Assembly: GCA_033763315.1 (NCBI GenBank)
Contig: JANRKS010000021.1
Location: forward strand, 74,205 to 138,204
Source of the DNA: Deltaproteobacteria bacterium
Lineage (GTDB): Bacteria > Myxococcota_A > Polyangia > Fen-1088
Reading direction: 5' to 3'
DNA length: 64,000 nucleotides
Shown: positions 14,317-35,172 of the stretch, in pieces
Layout: each line of letters begins with the position of its first letter
How positions within the stretch are numbered: position 1 is the stretch's first letter
Made by a program: the position numbers and the translations under genes
Notes under the pieces: generated by a model
The model's database searches: none
The model's input: only the letters and a program-made list of their open reading frames with translations
Told to the model about the DNA's origin: nothing

Positions 14317-15155
14317 CTATGGCAAAGGAAGTCTATGCGGGATCGGATCGATTCGCGCTTGAGGGACGCGTGGCGATCGTCACGGGCGCGTGCGGTCTTT
14401 TGGGTGAGCAGTTCTGCCAGGCCCTGCTTGAAGCCGGTGCACACGTCGTGGTGGCTGATATTGACGGCGATCGCGCTCAGGAGGCAGCCCGCGGTCTGGT
14501 GAAGCAAGGGATGGGCGCAGCGATCGGGGTGCAACTCGATGTTACGCGCAAAGACTCTCTGGAAGCCGTAAAAGACACATGCTTGCGAGAGTTTGATCGC
14601 ATCGATGTGCTTGTGAACAGCGCGGCCATCAACGATCGGTTTGACGAAGGTCAAGCGGCCGAGCAATCGCGCTTCGAGTCGTATTCGTTGCAGGCCTGGC
14701 AGCAGCAGATTGAGGTCAACCTCACGGGCTCATTCCTGTCGTGCCAGGTGTTCGGCGCGGCCATGGCGGCGCAAGGCCGCGGCAGCATCATCAACATTGG
14801 TTCCACGTATGGACTGGTCGCGCCCGTGCAGGAGATTTACCGCCGGCCTGACGGCTCGCAGCTGTTCTTCAAGTCGGCGGGTTATGCGGCCAGCAAGGGC
14901 GGCGTGGTGATGCTGACCCGCTTTGTTGCCACATATTGGGCTCATCGAGGCGTGCGAGCCAACGTGTTGTGCCCGGGCGGCGTCGCACAAAACCAAGACG
15001 CACATTTTGTTGAACAGTATTCGTCACGTACGCCTATGGGACGCATGGCAGAGCCCCGTGAAATCGCGGGGGCTGCCGTATTTTTGGCGAGCGACGCTGC
15101 CTCATACGTCACGGGCGCAGTGTTCTCCGTGGATGGCGGATGGACCGCATGGTGA
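14313..15155 (+). CDS. Short-chain dehydrogenase/reductase
   Basis: TGACGLLG, LVNSA, NIGSTYG, YAASK catalytic motif, VDGGWTAW. Confidence 0.9.
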   Translation: MTMAKEVYAGSDRFALEGRVAIVTGACGLLGEQFCQALLEAGAHVVVADIDGDRAQEAARGLVKQGMGAAIGVQLDVTRKDSLEAVKDTCLREFDRIDVLVNSAAINDRFDEGQAAEQSRFESYSLQAWQQQIEVNLTGSFLSCQVFGAAMAAQGRGSIINIGSTYGLVAPVQEIYRRPDGSQLFFKSAGYAASKGGVVMLTRFVATYWAHRGVRANVLCPGGVAQNQDAHFVEQYSSRTPMGRMAEPREIAGAAVFLASDAASYVTGAVFSVDGGWTAW

Positions 15156-15679
15156 ATACGGCTATACCTCTCGATGAACTGCGTCGACGCGCGCGCACCA
15201 TCGCAGTTGTGTTTACGGATTGCGACGGCGTGTTGACCGATGGCAGCGTTTACTACGACCGGCAAGGTGAGAGCATGCTGCGGTTCTCCCGCCGTGACGG
15301 CATGGGTGTCGAACGGCTGCGCGCGCAAAGCATCGAAGTCGCGATTTTGACGCGCGAGACGTCACCGATTGTTGAACATCGTGCGGCCAAGCTAAGCACC
15401 CGGCTGTTCGCTGGCGTCAAAGACAAGCGCGCTGCGTTTCCGGCCCTTTTGCGTGAGATGTATGCGCAGGTCGAAGCCTGCGCGTTCATAGGGGACGACG
15501 TCAATGACCTGGACTTGCTTCGTTACGTAACGTCGATGGGCGGCCTAAGCGGTGCACCCGCAGACGCGCGACCCGAGGTTCGAGACGCCGTTCTGTTTGT
15601 GACCGAAGCGCCTGGAGGCGAAGGCGCGTTCCGAGAATTTGCTGAGTGGATACTTCAACTGCGAGGAGCAACATCATGA
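15149..15679 (+). CDS. KdsC-family HAD phosphatase (Kdo-8-P / KDN-9-P phosphatase-like)
   Basis: FTDCDGVLTDG, RDGMG, FIGDDVND, APADA, GGEGAFRE. Confidence 0.9.
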   Translation: MVNTAIPLDELRRRARTIAVVFTDCDGVLTDGSVYYDRQGESMLRFSRRDGMGVERLRAQSIEVAILTRETSPIVEHRAAKLSTRLFAGVKDKRAAFPALLREMYAQVEACAFIGDDVNDLDLLRYVTSMGGLSGAPADARPEVRDAVLFVTEAPGGEGAFREFAEWILQLRGATS

Positions 15680-16578
15680 GCGCAACGAACATCAAAGTGG
15701 CTGACCGGATGATTGGCGAAGGTATGCCCGTGTTTGTGATTGCCGAAATCGGCATCAATCACAACGGCGACATGGCGCTCGCAAAGCGTTTGATCGACGG
15801 AGCGGTTTTGGCAGGCGCGGACGCTGTCAAGTTTCAAAAGCGCACGCCTGAGCTGTGTGTTCCCAAGGACCAATGGTTGCAAGAGCGCGACACGCCTTGG
15901 GGCCGCATGACATACATCGATTACCGCCGGCGCATTGAATTCGGCCAAGCGGAGTACGAACAAATCGACAAGCACTGCAAGGAACGCGGCATCTTGTGGT
16001 TCGCCTCGTGTTGGGATGAACCCTCTGTGGATTTCATCGATGCCTTTTCGCCCCCTTGCTATAAGGCCGCTTCGGCCTCTCTGACCGATCACCCGCTACT
16101 GGCTCGCATGAAGGCCACGGGTCGGCCGTTGATGATCTCCACGGGCATGTCAACCTTGGCAGAGATCGACGCAGCCGTGGGCGTGCTTGGCTTCGACAAT
16201 CTGATGATTGCGCATTCGACATCAGCCTATCCCTGCCCCGTCGATTCGCTCAACCTGCGCATGATTCACACCCTGCGGGCGCGCTATCCTGAGGCCTTGA
16301 TCGGATACTCGGGCCACGAAACGGGGCTGGCCACCACGTGGGCTGCGGTTTCCATGGGAGCCACATTCGTCGAACGCCACATCACGCTTGACCGCGCCAT
16401 GTGGGGAACGGATCAGGCGGCGTCGGTCGAAATCGGCGGGCTTATGCGCCTGGTTTCCAACATTCGCGACATTGAACGCTCTTTGGGCGATGGGGTCAAG
16501 CGTGTCTACGAGCCAGAGCTCGCGATGCGCCAGAAACTGCGGCGTGTGCAAAGCGTGGTCGAAGCGAGCGCCAACTGA
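15676..16578 (+). CDS. neuB: NeuB-family nonulosonic acid synthase lacking the C-terminal SAF/AFP-like domain
   Basis: IAEIGINHNGD, ADAVKFQKR, ISTGMS, STSAYP, GYSGHE, ERHITLDR; ends about 20 aa after LGDGVK (300 aa). Confidence 0.85.
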   Translation: MSATNIKVADRMIGEGMPVFVIAEIGINHNGDMALAKRLIDGAVLAGADAVKFQKRTPELCVPKDQWLQERDTPWGRMTYIDYRRRIEFGQAEYEQIDKHCKERGILWFASCWDEPSVDFIDAFSPPCYKAASASLTDHPLLARMKATGRPLMISTGMSTLAEIDAAVGVLGFDNLMIAHSTSAYPCPVDSLNLRMIHTLRARYPEALIGYSGHETGLATTWAAVSMGATFVERHITLDRAMWGTDQAASVEIGGLMRLVSNIRDIERSLGDGVKRVYEPELAMRQKLRRVQSVVEASAN

Positions 16579-16580
16579 TC

Positions 16581-17387
16581 GTGAACGCCCAGCTGCTGTC
16601 CACGGCCGTCATCGTCGGCTCTGCTCTTGTGTTTATCTTGCTTGAACGCTGGCGTCCCTATGATGAACGCCAGCGCTTCTTGCGCGATGAGTTCTGGAGC
16701 GACTTACTGCTTTATACCTTGGCGCAAAGCTATGTGTTGGGGTTCGCGATCCCTTGGATCAGCTCGGCATTGGACAAAGCCCTTGGCGTTTCGAGCTGGG
16801 GCTTGCTCGCAGGGTGGCCGGTTGCAGCACAGTTCGCGCTGTTTTTCGTGACCCACGATCTCTACATCTATCTGTTTCACCGGGCACAACACCGCTGGAA
16901 GTGGCTATGGCGCTTGCATGAGGCACATCACAGCACCAAAGATGTAGATTGGCTCTCGGGATCCCGTTCACACGCACTTGAGATCTTGATCAATCAAACC
17001 ATCGAGTTCGCGCCGCTTGTGTTGTTGCGCGCGCACCCGTCGGTCGCCCTCTTGAAGCTGACCGTGGATGCGGTGTGGGGCATGTACATCCACACCAACA
17101 TCGACGTTCGTTCGGGTTGGTTGCAGTACGTCATCAATGGTCCCCAGATGCACCGTTGGCACCACGCCAAAGAAGTGACCGATGGACACCTCAACTACAG
17201 CACGAAGCTTGCGGTGTGGGATTGGCTATTTGGGACAGCATACTTGCCTCACAGACACAAACCACAAGCCTACGGGATGTTTGGCTATGATGTTCCGCGA
17301 GGGTTTTGGGCGCAGTTCTGGTTTGCCTTTCGATCGCCGCAGCCACCCGAAACTCAGGTAAGCTCGGCAAAGAGCCTTTCGTACTGA
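16581..17387 (+). CDS. Fatty-acid hydroxylase / sterol desaturase superfamily membrane enzyme
   Basis: His boxes HRAQH, HEAHHS, HTN, HRWHH; NYS...WDWLFGT. Confidence 0.85.
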   Translation: MNAQLLSTAVIVGSALVFILLERWRPYDERQRFLRDEFWSDLLLYTLAQSYVLGFAIPWISSALDKALGVSSWGLLAGWPVAAQFALFFVTHDLYIYLFHRAQHRWKWLWRLHEAHHSTKDVDWLSGSRSHALEILINQTIEFAPLVLLRAHPSVALLKLTVDAVWGMYIHTNIDVRSGWLQYVINGPQMHRWHHAKEVTDGHLNYSTKLAVWDWLFGTAYLPHRHKPQAYGMFGYDVPRGFWAQFWFAFRSPQPPETQVSSAKSLSY

Positions 17388-18193
17388 GCAACAGAGGCCG
17401 CCAAAGACAGACGCTGTTGTTGGGCGATGACTCTTGCGCGCGCTTCGTGCCACAGGGGCGAGCCAAAGGATGCATTATAGCGGTCTAAACAACACTGAAC
17501 GTCTTGCGGCTGCAGCGATGTCAAGAAATAGGGATAGTCATCCCCCAAAAGCTCAACCGCGCCTGGCTCCTTGCCGCCTATGAACACCGCGTGTGACGCT
17601 GAACAATTGGCAAGCTTCACAACCGACTTCGTCACATCAAGCCGGCCCGAAAAGTGCGCGTTGTAGGCGCGGAGCCGTTCCCGCCAATCCGCCTTCTTGA
17701 AATCCAAGAGCGCAACGCCGCGCAGCCCACCTTTGCTGCCGATGGAATTAACCGTTTCGCCCACGTAGACAAGTTTTGCCTGCATCACAGGGTGGTGCGG
17801 CAGAATGTGGGGATCGGCGTGGTGGTAGAACACGAATGCCCGCCCCGCAGGGTATTGCGCGAGGTACACATCTCTTGTTGCCTCGCTGCCAAAAAGAACC
17901 GCCGCACAGGCGCCTTCACAGTCGCGCAACAGGCGCGGATCATGGTCCAGGGCATCGAGGATCAAGATGTTTCGCTTCGCATGCAGAGCGTGATGCCTAT
18001 GTGGCTGGCTTTTGACGCACACAATGATGCTGTCGCGCACGCCCCGCAACGCCCACAGCGAGGGCCCTGCGACGGCCACACAGTTCCAGCCTCGGCAGCG
18101 CAGGGCTTCCGCCACCTGCATGCCCCTCATCGTGAACGATGGTCTGCGGCGGTGTGACCAAAAGATGACCGGCCTAGACCGCAACGTGGACAC
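17354..18193 (-). CDS. Hypothetical protein, possibly a divergent GT-B glycosyltransferase
   Basis: Continuous ORF coupled to the flippase stop (probable GTG start at 18193). MRGMQVAEAL, ILDALD, LVYVG and KSVVKLAN resemble GT-B elements. Confidence 0.45.
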   Translation of the reverse strand: MSTLRSRPVIFWSHRRRPSFTMRGMQVAEALRCRGWNCVAVAGPSLWALRGVRDSIIVCVKSQPHRHHALHAKRNILILDALDHDPRLLRDCEGACAAVLFGSEATRDVYLAQYPAGRAFVFYHHADPHILPHHPVMQAKLVYVGETVNSIGSKGGLRGVALLDFKKADWRERLRAYNAHFSGRLDVTKSVVKLANCSASHAVFIGGKEPGAVELLGDDYPYFLTSLQPQDVQCCLDRYNASFGSPLWHEARARVIAQQQRLSLAASVAQYERLFAELT

Positions 18194-19673
18194 GTCGACC
18201 CACTCCCAGAAACGGCCACAAGACCAGCAGATACCCAACAATGAAGACCGCAACCGGCAGCCACACCGAATGCGAAAGGCTAGCCGAAACAAAGGCCGAC
18301 ATGGCAGCGATGCTCACAGGAATCGTGGCAGCCAACAGTGGTCGAGCTGAAAACCGAACATTGAGCAACACGCGCACTTGCGCAAGCTGCAGGATCTGCT
18401 GCACGCACGTGCCTGTGGCCACGGCAATGGCGGCTCCCAAAAGCTGAAGCCGAGGCACCAAAAGCAGGTTCAATGAAACGTTCACGGCTGTGGCTATCAC
18501 CGCGTTGACAAGGTTGAGAGCGGGGCGGCCGCTCATCCCTAACACGTTTCCCGACAGTCCAAACGTGCAGCTGACAACCGCGCTTAACAGCAACACAACG
18601 AAAAAGGAGGTTTGCCCCGTGGGCGCCTTGGCGACCTCGAGAATGCCATGGCGTAACAGAATGCAAAGGCCAGCCACCGGTGCCGCCAGCCACAAACACC
18701 AACCACTAACTTTGCCGATGCTTTGGGAGAGCAGGCTCGTTCTTCCCTCGCGAGCCAAGCGCGCCACGAGGCTCGCGTAAACGCCCGCGAACGCCACACG
18801 GATCGTGAAGATCTGTCGAGCGATCTCGGAACCTACCCGGTAGGCCGTAATTAGTCTGTCAGGCAGTGATGCCATTCCCAAGAGCAACAGGTCGACGTCA
18901 AACGTGGCTTGATAAAAGGCCATGTTTAAGGACTGGGGCAGAGCGAACCTCAAAACCGCGCGGTGAGGAGCGGCGCCCCAGGCGCTCCGCAACCCATGAG
19001 GCTTAAAACGCCTACAATAGAGGAAGAGCGCGACCGCCGCGGCCGTCACTTGTGAAATGGTGAAGGCCCAGCAGATGGCGATGGAGGTTGGCGTTGCTTG
19101 GCGCAACAAGGCAAGCGAGGCGAAGAGAACAAGCGGCAGCACAAGGCTCTTGACGATCACGTCGCTTCCCATGCGCATCGAAGATCGCATCACTGCCGTG
19201 GTGATCGAGGCGAGTGACATGAAGGGAAGGCTGGCCGCCACCACCAAGAAGGCCGGTCCCAACCCCGGACGTGAAAACAGCAGACTTCCCAGGGTCTCGC
19301 CGGTCGCCCCAAGGACAATGGCACACAACGTGGAGACGCCTATCGCGTAGGCGGCGGCAGCAAGCACGACGCCATGGATGCGCTCGATGTCCTTTCTCTT
19401 CAGCTCCGTGTCGAAGGGATGGGCGCACAAGAACTGGGCGGCGTCTGAGAAGCCTGCGGAGCACAGAAACGAACAGATACCAACGCTTGCCATCACGAGA
19501 GCCACGCCTGAGAAACCGGGGCCGTACAGGCGCGACGCGACCAGAGGCAACAACCCGAGCGACAGTCGACCCAACGTTCCGAGAAGATTCACGAAGGCCC
19601 CGCGCTTAAGCAACGTATAGTCAGCGGCGCCAGCCAACGCGCCCCCCACGGACAGGCAAGGGAACTCTTGCAC
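18174..19673 (-). CDS. Oligosaccharide flippase (Wzx/MOP superfamily)
   Basis: 12-14 TM segments; RLYGP, LRFALP, DLLLLG, VLGMSGRP, LLVPRLQLLGAAIA. Confidence 0.8.
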   Translation of the reverse strand: MQEFPCLSVGGALAGAADYTLLKRGAFVNLLGTLGRLSLGLLPLVASRLYGPGFSGVALVMASVGICSFLCSAGFSDAAQFLCAHPFDTELKRKDIERIHGVVLAAAAYAIGVSTLCAIVLGATGETLGSLLFSRPGLGPAFLVVAASLPFMSLASITTAVMRSSMRMGSDVIVKSLVLPLVLFASLALLRQATPTSIAICWAFTISQVTAAAVALFLYCRRFKPHGLRSAWGAAPHRAVLRFALPQSLNMAFYQATFDVDLLLLGMASLPDRLITAYRVGSEIARQIFTIRVAFAGVYASLVARLAREGRTSLLSQSIGKVSGWCLWLAAPVAGLCILLRHGILEVAKAPTGQTSFFVVLLLSAVVSCTFGLSGNVLGMSGRPALNLVNAVIATAVNVSLNLLLVPRLQLLGAAIAVATGTCVQQILQLAQVRVLLNVRFSARPLLAATIPVSIAAMSAFVSASLSHSVWLPVAVFIVGYLLVLWPFLGVGRRVHVAV

Positions 19674-19871
19674 GCGTCCTCCGCTGTATCCGAAAACCGT
19701 TCATTCGCCCGCAGCCTTACCACTCGCGCCGGACATCGCACGAAACGAAACGGCGACAGCGCGCGCCGGCCTTCACCGCGGCCACGTGAATTGAGCGTAA
19801 CGTGAGATTTTCGTTCTCGTCGTCAACCCGCTACGACGTTGCCACGGAAGCCCATTACCATCGAGCCACAG

Positions 19872-21095
19872 ATGCATCGCAAAGGGCGTCATTGCTCGCT
19901 GGGGTTTTCACGCCGCACCGTCGTTGCCGGGTTGTTGTCGGCGGGTGCGGCGACCCGGTTCGATGGGGACGCGCCCTGCTCGAGGAGTCCCTTGCTGTCG
20001 ACGTTTTGGTGTCCCTCAGCTTTGACCGTGGAGCAGCACACAGATCCCGCCATCGCTAAGCTGGCTGCCCTGCACAGTCCGGCCCTTGCCTTTACGAACC
20101 CAAACATGTGGCCCGTTGACGTGTCGTATAGCTGGCACGACGGCAGCGACCTGTACTTCGAGGACGTAGGCGGCAAACAGCGAACCGTTCTCACCAATCG
20201 GCTGCTTCGCGAACCGGCAGCCTTCTTTGCACCCAGCGCCGATCACCGCCGCAAGCACTACATCAACAGCCCAGGCGATGGCCCACAGCAAGACGCGTGG
20301 GCGACGGCGTGGCTACGCATTCAAGGACACACGCCCGCAACGGCACTTTATCCACCCACGCAATACGTTCACGCATTTTGGTTGAACCGCCACCTGGGCC
20401 TCTTGGCGATCCAGTATTGGTTCTTCTACCCATTTAATGACTGGGTGAATCGCCACGAAGGCGATTGGGAGCACGTGGCCACGGTGTTCAAAGGCCCAAC
20501 CGCGCTGGAGAATCCCGGCGCCTTCACGCCGGTGGCCACGTTCTTCTATTTTCATGAATGGGTACATGAGGCAAAACAGGTACTGCACCTCAGAGGTGGT
20601 TCTGCCGCTGCAAAGCATCCCGTTGTTTTCGTGGGGGGTCAGGGCGACATGTGGAACCTGTGGCACTGTTCACATCGACAAAGCGGCGGCAGCTACCCTT
20701 GCGCTGGTAGGTTTGCGAACGCAGGTGCCGACAGGGGTTGGCTGGTGTCACCGTCCGAACAGGTCCAGCCTCCCGCGAGGATCATCCTGCCCGAGGACTT
20801 TAGATTGGTCATGCTGCCTGAGCCTGACCACGTGTCCGAACGGCAGTGGCCTCAACTTTGGTGGCTGCGTTGGAACCTGTTCTTTGGGCAACGCCGGATC
20901 GACGGCAATTTGCCATTGATGGGTGCGCTCGCGCTGGACCATCCGCCACATCACCCCGGGCAACACGTCGACTGGAATATGCGTACCAAGCGTCGGCTGT
21001 GGCCCGGCATTGCGCCGCCAACTAACCCGCTAGTCTTGCCGGCAGCGGTTCGGGATCGCCTCGTAACAATAGACGACCGTGCAAAGCTCACGTGA
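19872..21095 (+). CDS. Vps62-like (HEGDWE-motif) protein with possible Tat signal
   Basis: AIQYWFFYPFND...HEGDWEHV and HPVVFVG motifs; N-terminal SRRTVVAGLL; start uncertain (19839 TTG or 19872 ATG). Confidence 0.55.
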   Translation: MHRKGRHCSLGFSRRTVVAGLLSAGAATRFDGDAPCSRSPLLSTFWCPSALTVEQHTDPAIAKLAALHSPALAFTNPNMWPVDVSYSWHDGSDLYFEDVGGKQRTVLTNRLLREPAAFFAPSADHRRKHYINSPGDGPQQDAWATAWLRIQGHTPATALYPPTQYVHAFWLNRHLGLLAIQYWFFYPFNDWVNRHEGDWEHVATVFKGPTALENPGAFTPVATFFYFHEWVHEAKQVLHLRGGSAAAKHPVVFVGGQGDMWNLWHCSHRQSGGSYPCAGRFANAGADRGWLVSPSEQVQPPARIILPEDFRLVMLPEPDHVSERQWPQLWWLRWNLFFGQRRIDGNLPLMGALALDHPPHHPGQHVDWNMRTKRRLWPGIAPPTNPLVLPAAVRDRLVTIDDRAKLT

Positions 21096-21295
21096 AAATT
21101 CTTTTCCCAATTGAAAGAGATTCGCCGCAGCCTTGCAACAACATGCGACCTGACCGCCGACGAGTTGTCACCAGGTTGTAAGCCCAAACGCCCTTACGGG
21201 CGCCATGTTGTCCTTGCGATGGTTCCCACACTACCAATTGCGTTCGCAACGGCACCCGCCCTGTCAGCCCATGAAACTGCGAGACGCGTTTGACG

Positions 21296-22270
21296 ATGCG
21301 CGAATACAGAAGGGTTTTGGTCACCGGCGGAAACGGATTCATCGGTTCACGCGTTGTGCGCGCTTTGGTATCGCGTGGCATCACGGTCCGCTGTCTTCTG
21401 CGAACCACGTCCAATACGTCACGGATCGATGGTCTGCCGTTTGAGCGCGCGATGGGCGACGTGCGCGACGCGGAATCCGTTCGCCAAGCCTTCAACGGCT
21501 GCGACGCGGCCGTTCATCTCGCCAGCCTCTCAAATTGGAATGACATTGATTCCCCCTTAATGACGGAGGTGGTGATGGGCGGCACGCGCAACGTGTTGGA
21601 CGCGGCCAAGCAATGTGGGAACAAGTTGGTGGTGTTCGTTTCATCGGCGGCGGCGGTCAATGGCTCCGAAACGCCGGAGGTCTTTGCTGAGAATGCGGAG
21701 TTCACGCTGAACCACGCGAAATTGTCTTATGCGCAACACAAGCGCGACGCCGAGGCCTTGTGTGCGCAAAGCGGCGTCCCAGTGGTGGTGGTGAACCCCA
21801 CAGAGGTGTATGGCCCGGAAGACATTGGTTTGATCACCGCAGGTAACCTCGTTGATTTTGCGCGTAGCTCACCAGTGATGGTATGCGACGGTGGCACCAG
21901 CATCGTCCACGTTGACGACGTGGCCGACGGGATCGTCCAGGCGTTGCACCGGGGCCGTCCTCACGAGCGTTACATCCTTGGCGGCGACAATCTGACCGTG
22001 ACGGAACTGGCGCAGATGACGTTGAGTCTGGTGGGACGCAAAGCACGCGTGGTAAAATTGCCGAAGACGGCCATAAGGGCCTTGGCCTCCGTGGGGCGCG
22101 CCACGAAATTGCCGTTGCCCTTTAACCCGCGGGTTATCCCTTACGCCACCCGCTATTGGTTTACCGACAACAAGAAAGCCCGCACGGAACTCGGCGTTGA
22201 CTTTCGCTCCGCCGAGGCAACGCTGCGCCCCACCTTGCAGTGGCTGCAACAAACGGGACACATCTCATGA
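21296..22270 (+). CDS. NAD-dependent epimerase/reductase (extended SDR, HpnA/DFR-like)
   Basis: VLVTGGNGFIGS, HLAS, VSSAAA, YAQHK, VNPTEVYGP, VHVDDVA; ATGA-coupled to the PKS. Confidence 0.85.
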   Translation: MREYRRVLVTGGNGFIGSRVVRALVSRGITVRCLLRTTSNTSRIDGLPFERAMGDVRDAESVRQAFNGCDAAVHLASLSNWNDIDSPLMTEVVMGGTRNVLDAAKQCGNKLVVFVSSAAAVNGSETPEVFAENAEFTLNHAKLSYAQHKRDAEALCAQSGVPVVVVNPTEVYGPEDIGLITAGNLVDFARSSPVMVCDGGTSIVHVDDVADGIVQALHRGRPHERYILGGDNLTVTELAQMTLSLVGRKARVVKLPKTAIRALASVGRATKLPLPFNPRVIPYATRYWFTDNKKARTELGVDFRSAEATLRPTLQWLQQTGHIS

Positions 22271-25200
22271 GCAGGCTCCCCTCGCCCATCGCGATTGTAG
22301 GGATGGGCTGCCGCTTCCCAGGCTCCCCGAACATTCCAGCTTACTGGCGCACGATCAGGGATGGCAAAGTGTGGCTCGCGCCTGTGCCGCGATCGCGCTG
22401 GAACCACGACCTGTTCTATAGCCGCGACAGGGGCTTTCGTGACGCCAACAAGACCTATGTGGATCGCGTCTCACTCATCGATGGGCCTGAACTATTCGCG
22501 CCTGAGGCATTCGGGATCGCCCCCAAGCGCGCGCGTATCATGGACCCCCAGCAGCGCTTGTTCTTGGACGTCGTGCGCGCCGCCCTTGAGGACGCCGGCT
22601 ATGCGAAGCGAGAGCTGAAGCGGGATCGCGTTGGCACGTTTGTGGGCGCCTGTGTTTCCGACTTCATGGATCTGGTCACCGTACGTATGCGGGCAACGCT
22701 GTTGGCCGGCGGCGAATTCGGAGCTCCCTTGCAGGGCGACGAGATCCACAACGAGCTCACAAAGAACGTTGTGCCTCTCGCCGCACATACAGTGGTTGGG
22801 TCACTGCTCAACATGGTGGCGGCGAACGTGAATCAGGCCTATGACTTCGGCGGTCCTGCGTTCAGCACGGACGCTGCCTGCTCATCGGCCTTGGTGGCCC
22901 TTCATGAAGCCATGCTGCATCTGCGACATGGCACCTGCGACACGGCCATCGTCGGCGGTGTGTACATGGTGCTTTCACCCGACAACGTGCTCGGATTTTC
23001 GCGTATAGGGGCTGTGTCTGAGGCCAACATTTGCCGGCCGTTCGATCAGCGCGCCGACGGCTTCGTGGTGGGCGAAGGCATTGGCGCGGTGGTCTGCAAA
23101 CGCCTTGAAACCGCGCTCGCCGACAAAGATCGAATTTATGCCGTCATCCCAGGGATGGGCATGAACAACGATGGGCGCGGCGACGGTCCGATGACGCCTC
23201 GTAAAGAAGGTCAGCTCGCCGTTCTGGAGCGGGCCCATCAGGACAGTGGCATCGCGCCTTCGCGGGTTGAAGTTGTGGAGGCGCATGGCACCGCCACACC
23301 GGTGGGAGACGCCACCGAGGTTGCCGCGTTGGCCGAGTTCCGCGGCGATACATCGGGCCGGCCCTGTGCCCTCTCATCAGCGAAGGCCAACATCGGGCAC
23401 TCCATGAGTGCGGCCGGCATCGCCGGCTTGATCAGGGCAACGCTGGCGGTTCATCACGCAACGATTCCGATGCACGCTTCATACGAGCAGCCCCGCGCAG
23501 ACCTTCGGCTGCATGAGAGAGGCCTATACATCCCCAACCGCAGCATCCCCTGGCAGCGCCAGGACGCGCTTCCTCGCACGGTAGGTGTCAGCTCTTTCGG
23601 CTTTGGTGGCACCAACTGCCACGTCATCGTGCAAGAGCCATCCACCTCATCTGCAAGCACAACTCGTGTATTCATGAGCCATTCGATCGAGTCGCCGCCG
23701 CCGCGGCCCGAACTGTTTTTGCTTTCAGCACCAACGGCCGACTTGCTCTGTGAGACAGCCGTTGACCTTCTGGAAGCCTTCGTCGAACAAAACGATGTGT
23801 CGTTGGCAGGCATCGCCGCGAGCCTCGCATCGCGCACCGCTTCGCCTCACCGTGCCGCCTTCATCGCCAGCTCTCATCAACAATTCATCGCGGCGCTGCG
23901 TTGGCTGGCAGCGCCCTCGTCGGAAGAGCCTTCACACATCCACTTAAATCGCGAACCAGTGGGCTCTGATGTGCCAAAGCTCGCCATGCTCTTCCCTGGG
24001 CAGGGCGCCCAAAAGCCCGACATGGCGCGGCCGCTCTACGAACGCTTCGGTGTCTTTCGTGAAGCGCTGGATGCTCTCACAGCAGACTGCGCGATCGATG
24101 GGCGTGCGTTGTTGTCTTATCTTTACCCAACCAACGGCGCACGAGAGAAGGCGCGTGCCACGCTATCGCGCACAGAGATCTGTCAGCCCCTCATGGCCTC
24201 ACTGGGCCTTGCAAGCGCTGCGTTCTTTGATGCCCTGGGTGTCCGTGCGCACGCGGTCGCAGGCCACTCCTTGGGTGAATTTGCAGCCGCTGCGGCCGCG
24301 GGCATTCTGCCGGCACACGAGGCGGTGCAGCTCGTCGCTCGCAGAGGTGCACTCATGGCGTCTATGGCTTTGCCTGATTCAGGAGCCATGCTTGCTTTGT
24401 CCACCGATGCGGCCACCGCGCAAAGAGGTGTGTCACAGCATGATGGATGGGTTGTAGCCAACATCAACCACGCCCGGCAAACAGTGATAGCGGGACCGCG
24501 CGCCTCATGTGAAGCGGTGGCCACTCACTTTCGTGAGCTCTCCATCAAGGCCGTTGCCCTTGACGTATCACATGCCTTTCATTCGCCGTTGATGGACGGC
24601 ATCACGCAGCCCTTCACCTGCTTGGTCAAGCAACTACCGCTGGGGCCAGCAAAGATACCCTTTGTCAGCGCTGTGGAGCCGTCGCTCAGCCCGCTTGCGC
24701 CAGAGCAACTGCGCGCGGCCTGGACGAGGCACGCCACCGCGCCCGTAGATTTCATTGAAACAGTGAGGTCGCTGCACGAGCAAGGATGCCGCGTGTTCCT
24801 GCAAGTGACGGGCGGCCATAGCTTATTAAACATGGCGCGACACACGCTGGCCCACACAGATCCAAGCTGCTCGTACTTGGCCATCACTCAGGATGAGGGG
24901 GACGACGGCACCACATGCCTGCAGACCCTCGCGCGGCTCTTTACGCTTGGCTTCTCCGTGGATGCGCGAGGCCTTGAGGATCCAGCCGCAGACAGAACCG
25001 CCGTCTCGCTGCCGCCATCGCGCCTGCAAACACGAGCGCTGTGGCCCGTCAAACGCGAAACCGTTGCCGCCACCCCACACACCGTCAGCATGCCCAACAA
25101 CGACACCACACCGATGATGCAGCCCAAGCCTCAAGAACCGGCCGCCGGCGGCATGGCCACCGAATCCCCCGCAACGAGACTGAGGGCCCTGTTTGCGCAA

Positions 25201-28200
25201 CAGATGGCGCTGATGGATGCGCATGTGGAGATCATCCGCAAACAAAACGAACTGCTTGCGCAAGCCGCTCAAAGCCCGGCTGCAGAGTTGGCGCCCTTGA
25301 GGCCAGCCGCGCCGGCGACGTCGGCCCCCCCCGTCGTTCAAGCCGCGGCCGTCGCTGCCAGCGTATTTGAGCAACTTCGAGGTGTGGTGAGCCGCATCGC
25401 TGTCACTCCAATTGAAGGGCTGCATTCGCGCACGCGCCTCGGAGCGGATCTTGGGTTCGACTCGTTGATGATCACAGAGCTTTCGGCAGCCCTCACAGAG
25501 GCGTTCAACGGGCTGACCTTGCCTCGCCGCTTGTTTGAAACGGATCTAACGTTGGGGACGTTGGAAAAGGAGATCCGCGACCGCGTCCAAGCGCCCGAAC
25601 CAGCGACGAAGGTGGCCCAAGAGATACGCCTGTTTGAACCAAAGTGGGTGGCGCGTCCGCTCCGCCGCAACGCAAGCACACCATCTGAGAATGGCGCGGT
25701 CGTTCTCCTCAGTGCTGGTGATGATTGGGCTCCCGCACTGGCGAAGGCACTAGAACAGCGTGGACGCACCGTGAGAGCGACAAGCAGCGTACAAGACCCG
25801 TCGCTGCTCAGCGCCCATGTGATCGATCTGCGTCTACTTTCCATCCATGGCACGAACGATGCCGTAAACCTTCTGCAAAGCCTGCGACAAGTGGCGCAGC
25901 GGCGGCCAAGCACATGGCATGTTCTTGCTCACACGCAGAACGCCGCACCCGTGGGTGGTTTTCTTCGCTCGCTTAGCCACGAGGCCTATGGAGCTCAGTT
26001 GGGTTCCGTCGCGTTGGACGATGACGTGACGCCGTCACCAGAGTTTATAGAGGCACTGGTGCAGACCCTGCTGTCTGGCAAGTTTGACGAGGAGGTGCGT
26101 TTCACAGTGGCGGGCGGCCTCGGCCCCTTGTCAACGCAGTTTCATGCCCACGCCTTGCCTTCAACGTTCCCCTCCGCTGCAGGTGTGTTGCTGATTTCGG
26201 GCGCCACGGGTTCCATCGGCGGCAAGCTCGCGCGGCACTACGCCTGCAGCCAGGCGTCGTTGGCACTGCTTGGCCGCAAACCTGCGGACGCGCCAGACGT
26301 CTCAACGTGGCTTGCTGAATTGCGTTCACTTGGTGCAAAGGTTCACTACGCGAGCTGCGACATAACGGATGCGTCAGCTGTGAACAAAGCGGTTCTTGAC
26401 GCGCGGGCGGCTTTGGGTCCGATCACGGCCTGCCTTCACGCCGCGGGCGAGACAGACGATCACCCGGTTCACGCACCCTTTACGGACGCAACAGCCGCCG
26501 TGGTAGCAACCAAAGTGGACGGCGCAGAGAACCTTTGGAACGCACTTCAGAACCAACCGCTGATCACCTTCGTTGCACTTGGTTCGTGGGCGGCACGCTT
26601 TGGCAACCGGCACCAAACAACGTACGCGTTTGCGAACGCTTTGCTCGCGTCCGTAATGTCACGCTTTGAAAGCACACGCCCACAGGTACGCTGCTGCGTG
26701 CTGGAGCTGCCTGCTTGGCGGGGCACGGGGATGGTAACAAAGTTACCTGTCGCCGCGCGCGTGCAGCTTGAAAGCCAGGTGGAGACACTGGCGGATTCGG
26801 AAGGTGTCAACGTTATTGCAGCAGCCCTTTCTGGTGCGCTGGCGAGCGGCACCTACGTGGTGGCGCGACGCCTGCCTCCGATCGAAGAGACCTTCGGTTG
26901 GACACAGACGCTGGCTCCTGATGCCCCTGGCTATCTTTCCTCGCACGTCATCGCCGCACGCCCTGTCCTTCCGTTGGCCGGCGCGATCGATCTCATGTTG
27001 CCCGCCCTCGCCCACCAAGGCATCAAGCTGCCCCTGGCACTGCGAGACGTGGAGGTCGTGCAGGGCGTTGTTCTCGAAGGCGACTCGGCAACGGTGCTCA
27101 CCCGCGTGCGCAATGGTGAAGCCGGCACAATCGTCGAGACGATTAGGCTTGATGATCGAAACCAGATCGGGTTTCGGGCCACCTTGAGCGTCATAGACGA
27201 TCTTCAACCTGTGCAGCTTGGTGACTTGCGAGAGGCTACGTTCGGCGTTGAGCACTTCTATCAACACGCCACATTTCACGGCCCGGCCTTGCGGCCACTG
27301 TTGCAAGTCCGTGGCGTAAGTCAGCACGCGATCTCCGCGCTATGCGAAGCGTCCAGTGTCGAGGGCGGCACGACGCTTGTCAGTGGGCTCGATGGCGTCC
27401 TGCAGGTCTTTGCCTTCTGGTCCGCACATACGTTGGGGCGCGCAGGCTTGCCGTTGGCGATCGACGCGATCCACATCCTCCGCCAACCCGTGGCGCACGA
27501 GGTTCTGTATATTGAAGCCACCGTTGCCACCAACGAGGACGGAACGATGCGCGGCGACGCCGATGTGCGCGACGAACACAACCAACTGGTGTTCAGGCTC
27601 CGGGGTTTCAAAGGCGAACCTCGCGATCTCACCCGACTCGCGGCCGGCCGTAGCCTCGCGTCCGCACGTGTCTTGCCGGAGCGCGAGACGGTATTCGATG
27701 CGCCGCTTGAACACACCAGCGTGCAACACTTTCCAGAGGTGCAAGAGCTGGCGCGCAGAATCACCGCTGCGAAGACCGCGGGAATGCAGATTCCCTATTT
27801 TCGCGCCCACGATGGCATAAACGGAGCCACCGCATCACTGCACGGACGATCGCTGCTGAACTTCTCTTCGTACAACTACCTCGGCTTTTCAGGTCATCCC
27901 GAGGTCACGCGCGCCGCCCAGCGTGCGATTGAAAAGTTCGGCTCTTCGGTGTCTGCCAGCCGGATTGCTTCAGGCGAACGACCGCTTCACCAGCAACTGG
28001 AGCGCGCCCTGGCAAAGCTTCTCGGCAGTGACGATGCCCTTGTGATGGTCGGCGGCCACGCAACCAACGTGTCCATCATCGGTCACCTGCTTGGCCCCGC
28101 AGACCTGGTGATCCATGACAGCCTCGCGCACGATAGCATTCTCGGTGGGGCGCGCTTGTCAGGCGCACGACGACGTCCGTTCCCACACAACAATGTGGAT

Positions 28201-28962
28201 GCCTTGAGGCGGATGTTGCGGGAAAGCCGCACCCAAGCGCGGCGCGTTCTGCTCGCCGTGGAGGGCGTGTACAGCATGGATGGCGACCTGGCACCGCTTG
28301 ACAAGCTCATCGAGCTCAAGCGTCAGTACGGCTGTCTGCTGCTCGTGGACGAGGCCCATTCATTGGGCGTCATCGGACCAACCGGCGCCGGCGTTGGAGA
28401 GCACTTCGGCGTCAATCGCGGCGACGTAGATCTGTGGATGGGCACGCTCTCGAAGTCGCTCGCCAGTTGCGGTGGTTACGTCGCTGGCGTGCGGCACCTC
28501 ATCGAATACCTGCGTTACAGCTTGCCGGGCTTCATCTACAGCGTTGGCATATCACCGGCCAACGCGGCCGCCGCATTGGCGGCACTCGATCTGATGGAAA
28601 GGCAGCCTGAAACGGTGGCGCGCCTGCAAGAGCGCTGCCGATACTTCCTGACTCTTTGCGAAGGCTTAGGCATTAACACCGGCCCCTCGCGAGGGTCAGC
28701 GATCGTGCCTTGCATCGTGGGCAATTCCGCCCTCTGCATGCAACTTTCGCAGGCTCTCCTCGCGCGTGGCATCAACGTGCAGCCCATCGTGTACCCGGCC
28801 GTGGAAGAGGATCAAGCGCGTCTTCGCTTCTTCATCTGTGCCACCCACACCGAAGAACAGCTCCGGCAAACCGCCAGCGCGTTGGCGCAAGAGTTGTTTC
28901 GGTTGCAGCCGCCTCACATGATCGATGCGATTGACCGCCACACCGTGGCCAACGGAGGATAG
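22267..28962 (+). CDS. Type I PKS KS-AT-ACP-KR-DH fused to a C-terminal alpha-oxoamine synthase (SPT/AONS-like PLP) domain
   Basis: KS: DAACSS (Cys ~22879), EAHGTAT, KANIGH. AT: GHSLG (~24262) and HAFHS (malonyl type). ACP: LGFDSL (~25459). KR: GATGSIG (~26200), YAFAN. DH: HVIAARPVLP (~26944), LDGVLQ. AOS: NFSSYNYLG, VEGVYSMDGD, DEAH (~28348), GTLSK (~28453). No ER or TE. Confidence 0.92.
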   Translation: MSRLPSPIAIVGMGCRFPGSPNIPAYWRTIRDGKVWLAPVPRSRWNHDLFYSRDRGFRDANKTYVDRVSLIDGPELFAPEAFGIAPKRARIMDPQQRLFLDVVRAALEDAGYAKRELKRDRVGTFVGACVSDFMDLVTVRMRATLLAGGEFGAPLQGDEIHNELTKNVVPLAAHTVVGSLLNMVAANVNQAYDFGGPAFSTDAACSSALVALHEAMLHLRHGTCDTAIVGGVYMVLSPDNVLGFSRIGAVSEANICRPFDQRADGFVVGEGIGAVVCKRLETALADKDRIYAVIPGMGMNNDGRGDGPMTPRKEGQLAVLERAHQDSGIAPSRVEVVEAHGTATPVGDATEVAALAEFRGDTSGRPCALSSAKANIGHSMSAAGIAGLIRATLAVHHATIPMHASYEQPRADLRLHERGLYIPNRSIPWQRQDALPRTVGVSSFGFGGTNCHVIVQEPSTSSASTTRVFMSHSIESPPPRPELFLLSAPTADLLCETAVDLLEAFVEQNDVSLAGIAASLASRTASPHRAAFIASSHQQFIAALRWLAAPSSEEPSHIHLNREPVGSDVPKLAMLFPGQGAQKPDMARPLYERFGVFREALDALTADCAIDGRALLSYLYPTNGAREKARATLSRTEICQPLMASLGLASAAFFDALGVRAHAVAGHSLGEFAAAAAAGILPAHEAVQLVARRGALMASMALPDSGAMLALSTDAATAQRGVSQHDGWVVANINHARQTVIAGPRASCEAVATHFRELSIKAVALDVSHAFHSPLMDGITQPFTCLVKQLPLGPAKIPFVSAVEPSLSPLAPEQLRAAWTRHATAPVDFIETVRSLHEQGCRVFLQVTGGHSLLNMARHTLAHTDPSCSYLAITQDEGDDGTTCLQTLARLFTLGFSVDARGLEDPAADRTAVSLPPSRLQTRALWPVKRETVAATPHTVSMPNNDTTPMMQPKPQEPAAGGMATESPATRLRALFAQQMALMDAHVEIIRKQNELLAQAAQSPAAELAPLRPAAPATSAPPVVQAAAVAASVFEQLRGVVSRIAVTPIEGLHSRTRLGADLGFDSLMITELSAALTEAFNGLTLPRRLFETDLTLGTLEKEIRDRVQAPEPATKVAQEIRLFEPKWVARPLRRNASTPSENGAVVLLSAGDDWAPALAKALEQRGRTVRATSSVQDPSLLSAHVIDLRLLSIHGTNDAVNLLQSLRQVAQRRPSTWHVLAHTQNAAPVGGFLRSLSHEAYGAQLGSVALDDDVTPSPEFIEALVQTLLSGKFDEEVRFTVAGGLGPLSTQFHAHALPSTFPSAAGVLLISGATGSIGGKLARHYACSQASLALLGRKPADAPDVSTWLAELRSLGAKVHYASCDITDASAVNKAVLDARAALGPITACLHAAGETDDHPVHAPFTDATAAVVATKVDGAENLWNALQNQPLITFVALGSWAARFGNRHQTTYAFANALLASVMSRFESTRPQVRCCVLELPAWRGTGMVTKLPVAARVQLESQVETLADSEGVNVIAAALSGALASGTYVVARRLPPIEETFGWTQTLAPDAPGYLSSHVIAARPVLPLAGAIDLMLPALAHQGIKLPLALRDVEVVQGVVLEGDSATVLTRVRNGEAGTIVETIRLDDRNQIGFRATLSVIDDLQPVQLGDLREATFGVEHFYQHATFHGPALRPLLQVRGVSQHAISALCEASSVEGGTTLVSGLDGVLQVFAFWSAHTLGRAGLPLAIDAIHILRQPVAHEVLYIEATVATNEDGTMRGDADVRDEHNQLVFRLRGFKGEPRDLTRLAAGRSLASARVLPERETVFDAPLEHTSVQHFPEVQELARRITAAKTAGMQIPYFRAHDGINGATASLHGRSLLNFSSYNYLGFSGHPEVTRAAQRAIEKFGSSVSASRIASGERPLHQQLERALAKLLGSDDALVMVGGHATNVSIIGHLLGPADLVIHDSLAHDSILGGARLSGARRRPFPHNNVDALRRMLRESRTQARRVLLAVEGVYSMDGDLAPLDKLIELKRQYGCLLLVDEAHSLGVIGPTGAGVGEHFGVNRGDVDLWMGTLSKSLASCGGYVAGVRHLIEYLRYSLPGFIYSVGISPANAAAALAALDLMERQPETVARLQERCRYFLTLCEGLGINTGPSRGSAIVPCIVGNSALCMQLSQALLARGINVQPIVYPAVEEDQARLRFFICATHTEEQLRQTASALAQELFRLQPPHMIDAIDRHTVANGG

Positions 28963-34413: not shown

Positions 34414-35172
34414 TTGTTGCCACTTTGGAACGCCGCGGCGACTGAATGCCCGGCCATCCTGCCGGCGGAAGCCTCGTACGTGACCACCGGGTCCCCCGAA
34501 TTTCGCTATAGATGGCGGTTGTTGCCAGAGCCTCTTTCACTTTTCGCCCCACTGTGGCGGTCGTTCACCAGCGCCCCAACCACAGCCACCGAAACGCCGG
34601 GGATCCGCGCCGACTGGCACAAAGGCCGCCCCCGCTACGCCGTTTGGGTGGTGCGCGTCAGTCACCCCGCCGTAAACGAACGCGTGGCCGCCCTGGGACA
34701 GGCCTTGAAGCCCTGGCTCATCCCGCAGCCCGATCTGCACGTGACATTGGGCATCGCGGGCTTTCCGCGCCGCCAGTGCGTGGAAGACGACGACGTTTCG
34801 GAGAACGTGCTGGCCGCCCAGGCGGACGCCGTGGCTGCGTGGGCGCGTGCCACTTTATTTCGCGTGCACGGCGCGTGCGCCTTCTTGGCGGCGCCTTTTC
34901 TGTGTGTAACGGACGACCATCACAGCCTGCGCGACCTGCGGGCGCTGCTTGATCCGCCAGGCCGTGCGTTGAGCATCGAAGCTTACGTGCCACACGTGAC
35001 TGTGGGGCGTTGGAATGGCGCTCACGCCACGGCCGCTGTGGCCCTGCGAATGGAGCCTTTTCGCAACGGCGACCCCATCGACGTGAAGGCCGATGCCGTG
35101 GAATTGGTGGACTACGACGCGGCCGATCCGCAGGCCCGGCTCGTCACGAAAGTGCGCGTTCCGATGCCTTAG
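34414..35172 (+). CDS. 2H phosphoesterase (2'-5' RNA ligase-like) family protein
   Basis: Two HxT motifs (LHVTL, PHVTV); true start uncertain, probably downstream of 34414. Confidence 0.7.
   Translation: MLPLWNAAATECPAILPAEASYVTTGSPEFRYRWRLLPEPLSLFAPLWRSFTSAPTTATETPGIRADWHKGRPRYAVWVVRVSHPAVNERVAALGQALKPWLIPQPDLHVTLGIAGFPRRQCVEDDDVSENVLAAQADAVAAWARATLFRVHGACAFLAAPFLCVTDDHHSLRDLRALLDPPGRALSIEAYVPHVTVGRWNGAHATAAVALRMEPFRNGDPIDVKADAVELVDYDAADPQARLVTKVRVPMP

Follow-up and report, generated by a model that had tools for sequence, protein, structure and literature searches.

Can a bacterial polyketide synthase (PKS) set the double bond of a sphingoid base before the base itself is formed? This question is raised by a 64,000-nucleotide stretch of a Deltaproteobacteria bacterium genome (assembly GCA_033763315.1, contig JANRKS010000021.1, positions 74,205 to 138,204 of the forward strand; hereafter, the window), in which a single open reading frame (ORF) joins PKS domains to a pyridoxal phosphate (PLP)-dependent alpha-oxoamine synthase (AOS). 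So far as is known, the trans-4 double bond of sphingosine is a late addition by an oxygen-dependent desaturase. A previous sequence-only reading of the window had proposed that the PKS-AOS fusion could install it without a desaturase. Our best reading is that a single malonyl extension, ketoreduction and dehydration would give a 2E-enoyl thioester on the acyl carrier protein (ACP), that condensation with serine would yield a 3-keto-4-ene base, and that a short-chain dehydrogenase/reductase (SDR) would reduce this base and an acyltransferase would acylate it. The reading is tentative and we give it somewhat less than an even chance.

The PKS-AOS gene and its domains are the following (window coordinates).

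22267 to 28962, forward strand: PKS-AOS megasynthase ORF, 2,231 amino acids from the ATG (2,240 from a GTG at 22240), ordered ketosynthase (KS), acyltransferase (AT), ACP, ketoreductase (KR), dehydratase (DH), AOS
22282 to 23484, forward strand: KS, residues 15-415, Pfam 236 + 115 bits, Cys214/His349/His387
23989 to 24930, forward strand: AT, residues 584-897, Pfam 135 bits, GHSLG at 675 and HAFH at 778
25372 to 25566, forward strand: single ACP, residues 1045-1109, PP-binding 27.5 bits, phosphopantetheine Ser1075 in LGFDSL (at 1071)
26182 to 26679, forward strand: KR catalytic subdomain, residues 1315-1480, Pfam KR 118.5 bits
26887 to 27612, forward strand: PKS dehydratase, double hotdog, residues 1550-1791, from Pfam and the predicted structure
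27853 to 28884, forward strand: AOS (PLP), residues 1872-2215, Pfam Aminotran_1_2 183 bits, PLP lysine Lys2072 at nucleotide 28453

The Pfam matches follow the order KS, KS-AT linker, AT, PP-binding, KR, PKS_DH_N, PS-DH and Aminotran_1_2, which bears out the domain set and order given in the sequence-only reading. The catalytic motifs it named are all present, its dehydratase histidine and PLP lysine being His1569 (nucleotide 26944) and Lys2072. Its statement that the protein has neither an enoylreductase (ER) nor a thioesterase also held: no ER family (ADH_zinc_N, ADH_N) and no thioesterase is among the 15 Pfam families listed for PKS-AOS, and the interdomain gaps (approximately 200 amino acids from ACP to KR and approximately 80 from DH to AOS) are too short, leaving no room for a hidden ER. 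No adenylation (A) domain was found in the protein by Pfam. The true start is probably the ATG at 22267 rather than the GTG at 22240, because this ATG overlaps the TGA stop of the upstream SDR gene (ATGA).

Judged from its full Cys-His-His triad, the KS can condense. The HAFH motif marks malonyl-CoA specificity in AT domains, and by this motif the AT is of the malonyl type. The KR has GATGSIG, Lys1425, Ser1449, Tyr1462, Asn1466 and an Asp at the LDD position. An LDD-type Asp marks B-type KRs by a rule derived from modular PKSs, and a 2E double bond is therefore predicted. The two DH halves recognised by Pfam (PKS_DH_N at 1550-1629, 31.3 bits; PS-DH at 1716-1791, 29.8 bits) carry the motif HxxxAxxxxP with His1569, in which Ala replaces the Gly of HxxxGxxxxP, and Asp1718...Gln1722 at nucleotide 27391. 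The motifs DAACSS, HGTAT, KANIGH, YAFAN and TLSKS were also located in the protein.

The DH is weak by sequence, lying just above the Pfam cut-offs and giving no PDB sequence match. Since the sequence evidence was weakest there, its structure was modelled (AlphaFold, alignment of seven orthologues; pLDDT 86). The best Foldseek match of the model in the PDB was the CurJ DH (E 7e-15, TM 0.65/0.72), followed by the AlnB, CurF/H, GphF DH1 and PpsC dehydratases. The KR matched modular PKS KRs in the PDB at approximately 72 bits.

At least 107 full-length proteins (2,000 amino acids or more, leaving out the cluster nearly identical to the window protein) share this architecture among the best 120 matches listed, with identities of 36-51%. 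The few that are named come from metagenome-assembled genomes labelled Kofleriaceae, Myxococcales, Myxococcota or Deltaproteobacteria. The ER families are absent from the Pfam lists of all 107 full-length relatives among the matches listed. In the alignment of these relatives, the KS Cys, His and His and the ACP Ser were each present in 107/107, the AT Ser in 103/107 and HAFH in 102-104/107. The KR Lys/Tyr/Asn, the LDD-type Asp and the DH residues His1569, Pro1578, Asp1718 and Gln1722 were each conserved in at least 95%, and the KR Ser position in at least 80%. Retention of the KR and DH residues across 107 proteins without an ER indicates that an active KR and DH without ER is a selected property of the family and not a decayed remnant. 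On these residues, KR and DH look active and kept family-wide. The working KR and DH predicted earlier thus find intact, conserved catalytic residues and a DH model that resembles PKS dehydratases. When genome contigs were searched with the whole protein, the one locus returned was that of an unrelated Planctomycetota PKS (31% over a KS).

Read from its gene junctions, PKS-AOS is the middle gene of a translationally coupled three-gene operon, between an extended SDR and an acyltransferase with the catalytic fold of E2 (2-oxoacid dehydrogenase)/chloramphenicol acetyltransferase (CAT).

21290 to 22270, forward strand: extended SDR (NAD-dependent epimerase/3-beta-HSD type, HpnA-like), 326 amino acids, Pfam Epimerase 107.6 bits and 3Beta_HSD 84 bits
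28965 to 29852, forward strand: stand-alone acyltransferase, E2/CAT catalytic fold, 295 amino acids, weak Pfam 2-oxoacid_dh match (27.3 bits), motif HHLYEDG

The SDR scored 222 bits against the NCBIfam model HpnA, under the cut-off of 368. By its family, it is a candidate reductase of the 3-keto group, or of an enone. Its orthologues (57-71% identical) lie directly 5' of PKS-AOS in four of the five orthologous loci fetched. Among 41 related genomes, the window's included, family f1, to which the window's genome belongs, has full-length PKS-AOS in 7 of its 25 members, and one genome of another family has it as well. Strong SDR orthologues (E < 1e-120) were present in six of the seven PKS-AOS-bearing f1 genomes and in none of the 33 other genomes searched.

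The acyltransferase gene begins 2 nucleotides past the PKS-AOS stop and is preceded by GGAGGA (Shine-Dalgarno). The top Foldseek matches of its model (pLDDT 74.8) were E2 acyltransferase catalytic cores (E approximately 6e-15), and H208, H209, Y211, E212 and G214 were invariant in 20/20 aligned sequences. The model makes it a candidate N-acyltransferase (ceramide-synthase-like) or O-acyltransferase. It accompanies PKS-AOS in four of the five orthologous loci, and the fifth copy lies at a contig end in a related genome (G005). A strong homologue stands beside PKS-AOS in all seven PKS-AOS-bearing f1 genomes; the other 18 f1 genomes have neither. In the orthologous loci, a FA_hydroxylase gene lies between PKS-AOS and the acyltransferase (3/5) and an MMPL transporter is present (4/5). 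No ER-type gene is conserved across the five loci, and neither a loading domain in PKS-AOS nor an acyl ligase conserved near the gene was found. The match of the operon partners to the needs of a ceramide-type pathway is supported by the predicted SDR and acyltransferase, plus the FA hydroxylase and MMPL exporter in relatives.

In the pathway proposed, the operon would encode a polyketide-type synthase for the backbone of a sphingoid (long-chain amino-alcohol) lipid. The KS would be primed by a fatty acyl thioester of primary metabolism, the AT would load the single ACP with malonate, and a lone Claisen extension would give a 3-ketoacyl-ACP. By PKS logic, KR and DH without ER leave a 2-enoyl-ACP; here KR reduction and DH dehydration would give the 2E-enoyl-ACP. 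The PLP domain would condense this thioester with an amino acid, of which L-serine is the likeliest, and CO2 would be lost. A decarboxylative Claisen condensation of a 2-enoyl-ACP with serine would place the double bond at C4=C5 of the 3-keto base, so that a 2-amino-3-keto-4-ene base (3-ketosphing-4-enine) would be released. N-acylation by the acyltransferase and reduction of the 3-ketone by the SDR would then produce a ceramide-like lipid with a 4E double bond, which in relatives might be further hydroxylated, and exported by the MMPL transporter. We infer which starter is used, that it is extended once, that serine is the amino acid, that the AOS takes an enoyl thioester, what the SDR and acyltransferase do and in which order, and that the double bond survives.

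Would the double bond survive? The same assembly line could end in a saturated lipid, if a trans-acting ER worked before off-loading or if the SDR or another enzyme reduced C4=C5 of the enone. The product would then be of the sphinganine/dihydroceramide type. Trans-acting ERs such as LovC and PfaD serve PKSs that lack an ER domain, and the upstream SDR belongs to the extended 3-beta-HSD type, some members of which reduce the C=C of enones. In addition, the only characterised PKS sphingolipid route, that of SgaA/SgaB/SgaC in Pseudomonas fluorescens MYb115 (Peters et al. 2025), has a separate, fully reducing, iterative PKS and yields saturated C24-C28 sphinganines (PMC12134224; this and the other papers cited by PMC number are drawn on in excerpt). 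Nevertheless, we consider a saturated product unlikely. SgaA-like and Planktothrix relatives, whose chains are or are expected to be saturated, carry a cis ER, while 0/107 family members among the matches listed do, and the orthologous loci share no ER-type gene. Retention of the DH in at least 95% of members in the absence of an ER suggests that the double bond matters.

What kind of PKS makes the acyl chain? The best PDB sequence matches of KS-AT were modular PKSs (Brevibacillus PKS, 7zma; CurL; GfsA; DEBS), and no enediyne PKS and nothing recognised as PfaA appeared among the 60 best. Outside its own family, KS-AT-ACP was closest to Streptomyces KS-AT-ACP-AOS proteins of approximately 1,500 amino acids (41% identity over approximately 1,100 amino acids; KS 51%). 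Identity was 34% to a Planktothrix PKS-AOS and 28-31% to SgaA/WcbR-like PKSs (KS-AT). Against the PfaA model TIGR02813, the whole PKS-AOS reached 524 bits (cut-off 1,010), with one PP-binding domain and no tandem ACPs; the KR-DH piece reached 85 bits (profile positions 2081-2365 of 2582), and 110 bits against PKS_plus_SDR. A PfaA or enediyne ancestry of KS-AT was rejected, as modular PKSs lead the PDB matches. The label PfaA-like in the sequence-only reading consequently applies to the domain order and to the weak KR-DH match, but not to KS-AT-ACP, which is nearer to the Streptomyces proteins and to modular PKSs.

The relatives of PKS-AOS differ in their reductive sets: none in Streptomyces, KR and DH in the window family, and DH-ER-KR in SgaA-like and Planktothrix proteins. 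This series fits the idea that the reductive domains fix the C4-C5 state of the product. The simplest history suggested by these comparisons starts from a RedL-like KS-AT-ACP-AOS module that gained a KR-DH insertion behind its ACP, which would explain the odd domain order. AOS off-loading domains on PKSs are known from RedL and PigH. By analogy, RedL is a precedent for a single extension, the window KS-AT-ACP being 41% identical to Streptomyces proteins with the same core. In RedL, a fatty acyl chain is extended once by malonate and then off-loaded by a PLP domain with glycine (PMC11188435, excerpt).

An iterative PKS would lead elsewhere. Starting from acetate or another short starter and using KR and DH in each round, it would hand a polyenoyl-ACP to the AOS and make a polyene amino-ketone, perhaps a pigment-like or specialised metabolite. 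The order KS-AT-ACP-KR-DH is that of iterative enediyne PKSs, PKS-AOS has no loading domain and no conserved acyl ligase nearby, and its KR-DH piece matches the PfaA model, weakly. Enediyne PKSs act iteratively and give polyene products (PMC9682884), and SgaA-type PKSs are iterative too (PMC12134224), as the excerpts describe them. On the other side stand the modular PKSs that lead the PDB matches of KS-AT, and the nearest relatives of KS-AT-ACP, which are KS-AT-ACP-AOS proteins with RedL-like single-extension logic. An envelope lipid agrees better with the partners (acyltransferase, SDR, FA hydroxylase and MMPL transporter) and with how widely the family is spread within a single phylum, and we regard the polyene product as improbable.

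Three further observations concern PKSs of these kinds. On Planktothrix agardhii plasmid p3 (L033, 3599-11197), a type I PKS with the order KS-AT-DH-ER-KR-ACP is fused to an AOS of the same clade as that of the window and adjoins a fatty acyl-AMP ligase (FAAL) and three glycosyltransferases; its gene content suggests a one-protein pathway to a saturated, glycosylated amino lipid. A Streptomyces anthocyanicus plasmid (L034, 6365-11203) encodes a KS-AT-ACP-AOS protein of 1,612 amino acids, with no reductive domains or loading part, beside an MMPL transporter; it is a member of the Streptomyces group that is nearest to the window's KS-AT-ACP. The window's genome has further large type I PKS genes on contigs C8 and C16 (open frames of 2,059 to 3,728 amino acids) and is thus rich in polyketide genes.

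The remaining step is that of the AOS. The best-scoring NCBIfam model of the AOS domain was bioF (TIGR00858; 351-356 bits), whose cut-off of 426.45 was not reached. The KBL model gave 309-314 bits (cut-off 460), and the serine palmitoyltransferase (SPT) models (NF047599, NF047600, NF047603) gave 319-325 of 640 (SPT-CFB), 274-279 of 500 and 215-220 of 670, all below cut-off. The SgaB-like and RkpG-like proteins resemble the domain in this: bioF leads without reaching its cut-off, and the cut-offs of the SPT models are missed likewise. Two more AOS genes stand elsewhere in the genome, a BioF-like one (424.6 bits on a cut piece vs. 426.45) and a clear KBL (598 bits vs. 493), and the PKS-AOS domain is the most SPT-like AOS of the genome. 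A canonical SPT over the cut-off was found in 0/41 related genomes. No bio genes were found near PKS-AOS in the Pfam/NCBIfam scans of nearby ORFs.

A maximum-likelihood tree of 49 AOS rows was rooted on ALAS, an arbitrary choice on a long branch. The SPT, BioF-like and KBL references came from relatives or from named plasmid records checked by NCBIfam scores, while the Ralstonia KBL, Burkholderia BioF and ALAS rows carry their record annotation. Three of the canonical SPT rows exceed their NCBIfam cut-off and a partial Prevotella piece scored 632 vs. 640. The window's AOS fell inside a 40-row clade (support 100/99) that takes in all the carrier- or PKS-linked AOSs collected, comprising Myxococcota fusions, ACP-AOS and FAAL-ACP-AOS types, the Planktothrix PKS-AOS, a Bacillus ACP-AOS, four Streptomyces KS-AT-ACP-AOS proteins and four stand-alone AOSs of the SgaB/RkpG type. 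The genes of the last four come after a PKS gene (Pseudomonas, Caballeronia, Microbulbifer, S. meliloti pSymB). The sister group of the 40-row clade (100/98) consists of four canonical SPTs, from Proteobacteria and Bacteroidota, so that the window's AOS lies next to the canonical SPT clade and not within it. BioF and KBL rows branch outside (100/96 and 100/98). The window and SgaB/RkpG subclades are separate inside the 40-row clade, where deeper branching is unresolved.

The sequence-only reading had named a BioF-type AOS as an outcome that would contradict it, and had called for placement of the domain among SPT, BioF, KBL and RedL. The tree puts it next to the SPTs, in the SgaB-type clade and apart from BioF and KBL; RedL, like the MYb115 SgaB, is outside the tree, so that this comparison covers the first three. 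Identity of the window's AOS was 51.5% to the Pseudomonas SgaB-like protein, 47.7% to the S. meliloti pSymB AOS and 36-38% to SPTs and KBL. Lys2072 in TLSKS and four further residues (His in AHDS, Asp and His in DEAHS, Arg in RLRFF) line up with their counterparts in every reference AOS; a PLP Lys, His, Asp, His and Arg are the catalytic positions of AOSs. Amino-acid specificity could not be taken from these motifs and this approach was rejected, as the whole carrier-linked clade has the same ones.

Glycine or alanine could take the place of serine, giving a 1-deoxy- or 1-desmethyl-type amino-ketone lipid. The top NCBIfam score of the domain is with bioF, and the Streptomyces KS-AT-ACP-AOS proteins are unresolved neighbours of the window's clade. 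The glycine used by the RedL PLP domain (PMC11188435) also counts against serine, and 1-deoxyceramides are abundant in nature according to the excerpt of PMC11334938. However, SgaB-like and RkpG-like proteins score bioF on top and below cut-off as well, and PfSgaB, taken as the same type by its cluster layout, strongly prefers serine: in vitro it condensed acyl-CoAs with L-serine and hardly used alanine or glycine (PMC12134224, excerpt). The 40-row clade is sister to the SPTs and not to KBL, ALAS or BioF. Ser-Arg is kept where SPTs have Gly-Ser-Arg, KBL Val-Arg and ALAS Thr-Arg, the meaning of this position being general background. A glycine- or alanine-derived product thus seems to us a minor prospect, about as improbable as the polyene. 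A BioF or KBL of biotin or threonine metabolism, joined to the PKS by chance or misassembly, can practically be dismissed despite the bioF score and the label 8-amino-7-oxononanoate synthase that sources give to many homologues, for the fusion is found again in 107 or more full-length proteins and across 7 related genomes, the genome has separate BioF-like and KBL genes, and the identification of the AOS as BioF or KBL was rejected by its placement in the tree.

Two other AOS genes were observed among the sequences compared. A stand-alone AOS of 431 amino acids in a related genome (G008:C3, locus L030, 8805-10100, reverse strand) is 44-46% identical to the window's AOS and branches at the base of the carrier-linked clade; this genome has no PKS fusion, SDR or acyltransferase. 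A gene of a Pseudomonas veronii plasmid (L037, 148-1368), recorded as 8-amino-7-oxononanoate synthase, reached 614.6 bits vs. 500 with NF047599; as it exceeds the SPT cut-off and groups with a Roseomonas SPT, the recorded name is probably wrong.

How firmly, then, can the 4-ene sphingoid pathway be held? Several points weigh against it. An AOS that takes an alpha,beta-unsaturated thioester as substrate has no precedent known to us. The family is known from its sequences alone and the chemistry of its members is predicted. Every NCBIfam SPT model scores the AOS domain below its cut-off, its active-site motifs are common to the entire carrier-linked clade, and the Streptomyces KS-AT-ACP-AOS group lies in the same poorly resolved part of that clade (93/91). 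With such unresolved neighbours the choice of amino acid is not readable from the tree, and since the motifs are shared too, serine is the best guess and not a result. The order KS-AT-ACP-KR-DH is also that of iterative enediyne PKSs and PfaA, and by analogy the window PKS may iterate. The SDR, to judge from its type, could act as a reductase of C=O or of a conjugated C=C. In 5 related genomes, all of other families, strong acyltransferase homologues were found with no AOS in the flanking DNA (approximately 1-10 kb per side, three loci ending at a contig edge), so the acyltransferase is not dedicated to PKS-AOS. A Pfam scan around these AOS-free homologues gave nothing useful, shadow ORFs in the GC-rich DNA making gene picking unreliable. 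Finally, 6 FA_desaturase genes are present in the genome and a FA_hydroxylase gene lies near the operon, and the organism therefore uses oxygen-dependent lipid chemistry. The chemistry of the proposed route would need no O2, as suggested earlier, but independence of oxygen is not forced on this organism. A Lipid_DES (PF08557) search of the genome gave no match, and its controls likewise gave none.

One of these 6 FA_desaturase-family genes, by which the organism has oxygen-dependent lipid desaturases, lies in the window at approximately 59449-60132, reverse strand (G000:C21:133653-134336).

How does the 4-ene sphingoid pathway compare with known systems? The SgaAB comparison was made with stand-ins (Pseudomonas plasmid, Caballeronia, Microbulbifer, S. 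meliloti pSymB), whose orthology to SgaAB rests on cluster layout, by which they were chosen; the MYb115 proteins themselves were outside the comparison. The pSymB AOS gene of S. meliloti is presumably RkpG. In SgaAB, RkpA/RkpG/RkpH and WcbR-type clusters, as in the window, a type I PKS hands its chain to an AOS of the same clade. The SgaAB cluster also includes a reductase gene, and its product is a serine-derived sphingoid base. The differences are several: SgaA and SgaB are separate and the window protein is fused, the SgaA stand-in has the order KS-AT-DH-ER-KR-ACP whereas the window protein lacks ER and is ordered differently, and the SgaAB reductase is a classical SDR and that of the window an extended one (KS-AT identity 28-31%). 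The SgaAB/RkpAG-type clusters fetched sit among capsule genes.

RedL of the undecylprodigiosin pathway, compared by its description and through the uncharacterised Streptomyces KS-AT-ACP-AOS proteins, likewise has a KS-AT-ACP core, with an AOS at the C-terminus for off-loading the chain from the ACP. In contrast to PKS-AOS, it has no KR or DH, uses glycine, and makes a 3,5-diketo product that cyclises to a pyrroline. The KR-DH between ACP and AOS in the window protein would remove the 5-keto group needed for such cyclisation. RedL also has an A-ACP loading part, to which nothing in PKS-AOS corresponds, there being no A domain.

The order KS-AT-ACP(n)-KR-DH is shared with PfaA and enediyne PKSs; PKS-AOS has one ACP instead of several, and no phosphopantetheinyl transferase domain. 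No families of the PfaB/C/D type or of the enediyne cassette were matched by Pfam/NCBIfam among the ORFs scanned (window 12.6-40 kb).

bCerS of the canonical bacterial ceramide pathway is a GNAT-type protein. This pathway consists of Spt, bCerS and CerR (Caulobacter; PMC11324152, excerpt). As in the window operon, its AOS condensation, N-acyltransferase and NAD(P)-dependent reductase roles are encoded together, and the window's AOS clade is sister to Spt. Unlike Spt, the window's AOS is fused to a PKS and below every SPT cut-off, and the window acyltransferase has the E2/CAT fold. Canonical Spt takes a saturated acyl-ACP or acyl-CoA, in contrast to the enoyl-ACP proposed here. DES1, the eukaryotic sphingolipid delta-4 desaturase of the route to sphingosine, puts in the 4E bond late, on dihydroceramide, with O2 and a di-iron centre. 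If our reading is right, both routes would end with a 4E double bond adjacent to the C3 hydroxyl in a sphingoid base, but here dehydration without O2 would build the bond into the acyl chain ahead of base formation.

What would be new in this? PKS-made sphingolipids, PKS off-loading AOS domains and the canonical bacterial ceramide genes are already known. The sequence-only reading had not recognised a PKS-linked AOS in this role; the role is less unprecedented since PKS-made sphingolipids were published in 2025, although those are saturated. The literature searched, which did not extend to subscription journals and supplementary gene lists, held nothing on the fused ER-less family, the E2-fold partner or a dehydratase-made 4-ene. 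No Myxococcota PKS-SPT fusion was reported in it either, the supplementary list of Peters et al. (6,101 clusters) being outside the search. The excerpts of the Black Sea sphingolipid paper and of the Spt/CerS/CerR localisation paper contain no mention of polyketide or fused forms.

The boldest form of the proposal is that this Myxococcota family makes 4E bases without desaturase or oxygen, through a double bond made by KR-DH, and with an E2-fold ceramide synthase unrelated to both known types. We think this doubtful. If true, it would be a third independent ceramide route, and the mono-unsaturated sphingoid bases of anoxic waters would have their first biosynthetic explanation. Of the ceramide structures in the euxinic Black Sea, approximately 46% have one unsaturation in the base (PMC11334938, excerpt). 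Polyketide dehydration before base formation would be a different chemical solution, workable without oxygen, the 2025 finding of bacterial PKS sphingolipids would be extended to a second phylum and to a partly reducing architecture, and the E2/CAT fold would become a new candidate ceramide synthase fold. The PKS-AOS series, from no reductive domains through KR-DH to DH-ER-KR, offers a natural test of how reductive domains set the C3-C5 pattern of amino lipids. If the double bond were later reduced, the finding would shrink to one more member of the PKS sphingolipids.

Other features of the window lie on both sides of the operon.

12643 to 16578, forward strand: four-gene nonulosonic-acid-like (KDN or sialic-acid-like) set, from Pfam/NCBIfam scans
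16581 to 17387, forward strand: FA_hydroxylase-family membrane oxygenase (OlsE-like), Pfam 102.6 bits, NCBIfam OlsE 128 bits, below cut-off
17354 to 21095: three ORFs without family between FA_hydroxylase and the operon, of 312 (reverse strand), 499 (reverse strand) and 418 amino acids (forward strand)
35169 to 40006, reverse strand: two adjacent ABC-transporter genes

The FA_hydroxylase gene lies approximately 5 kb 5' of PKS-AOS and adjoins the nonulosonic-acid set. It gave no BLAST match at 1e-5 to the FA_hydroxylase genes of the orthologous loci. By its family it is a possible accessory lipid hydroxylase, and its tie to the operon is uncertain.

The nonulosonic-acid set encodes a class-III aminotransferase (557 amino acids), a classical SDR (280), a KdsC/KDN-9-phosphate-phosphatase-like protein of the HAD type (179) and a NeuB-family synthase (310). 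It is not conserved in the orthologous loci; a homologue of its SDR adjoins the lipid operon in a genome of the same genus (G001, L019). By analogy, it might possibly supply a sugar head group or a capsule anchor for the lipid.

The 418-amino-acid ORF (19839-21095, forward strand; Atlas score 0.78) may not be a gene, and the 499-amino-acid ORF has a faint SpoVB/flippase-like match. The larger of the two ABC transporters (910 amino acids) carries an N-terminal C39 peptidase domain, as in bacteriocin/peptide exporters.

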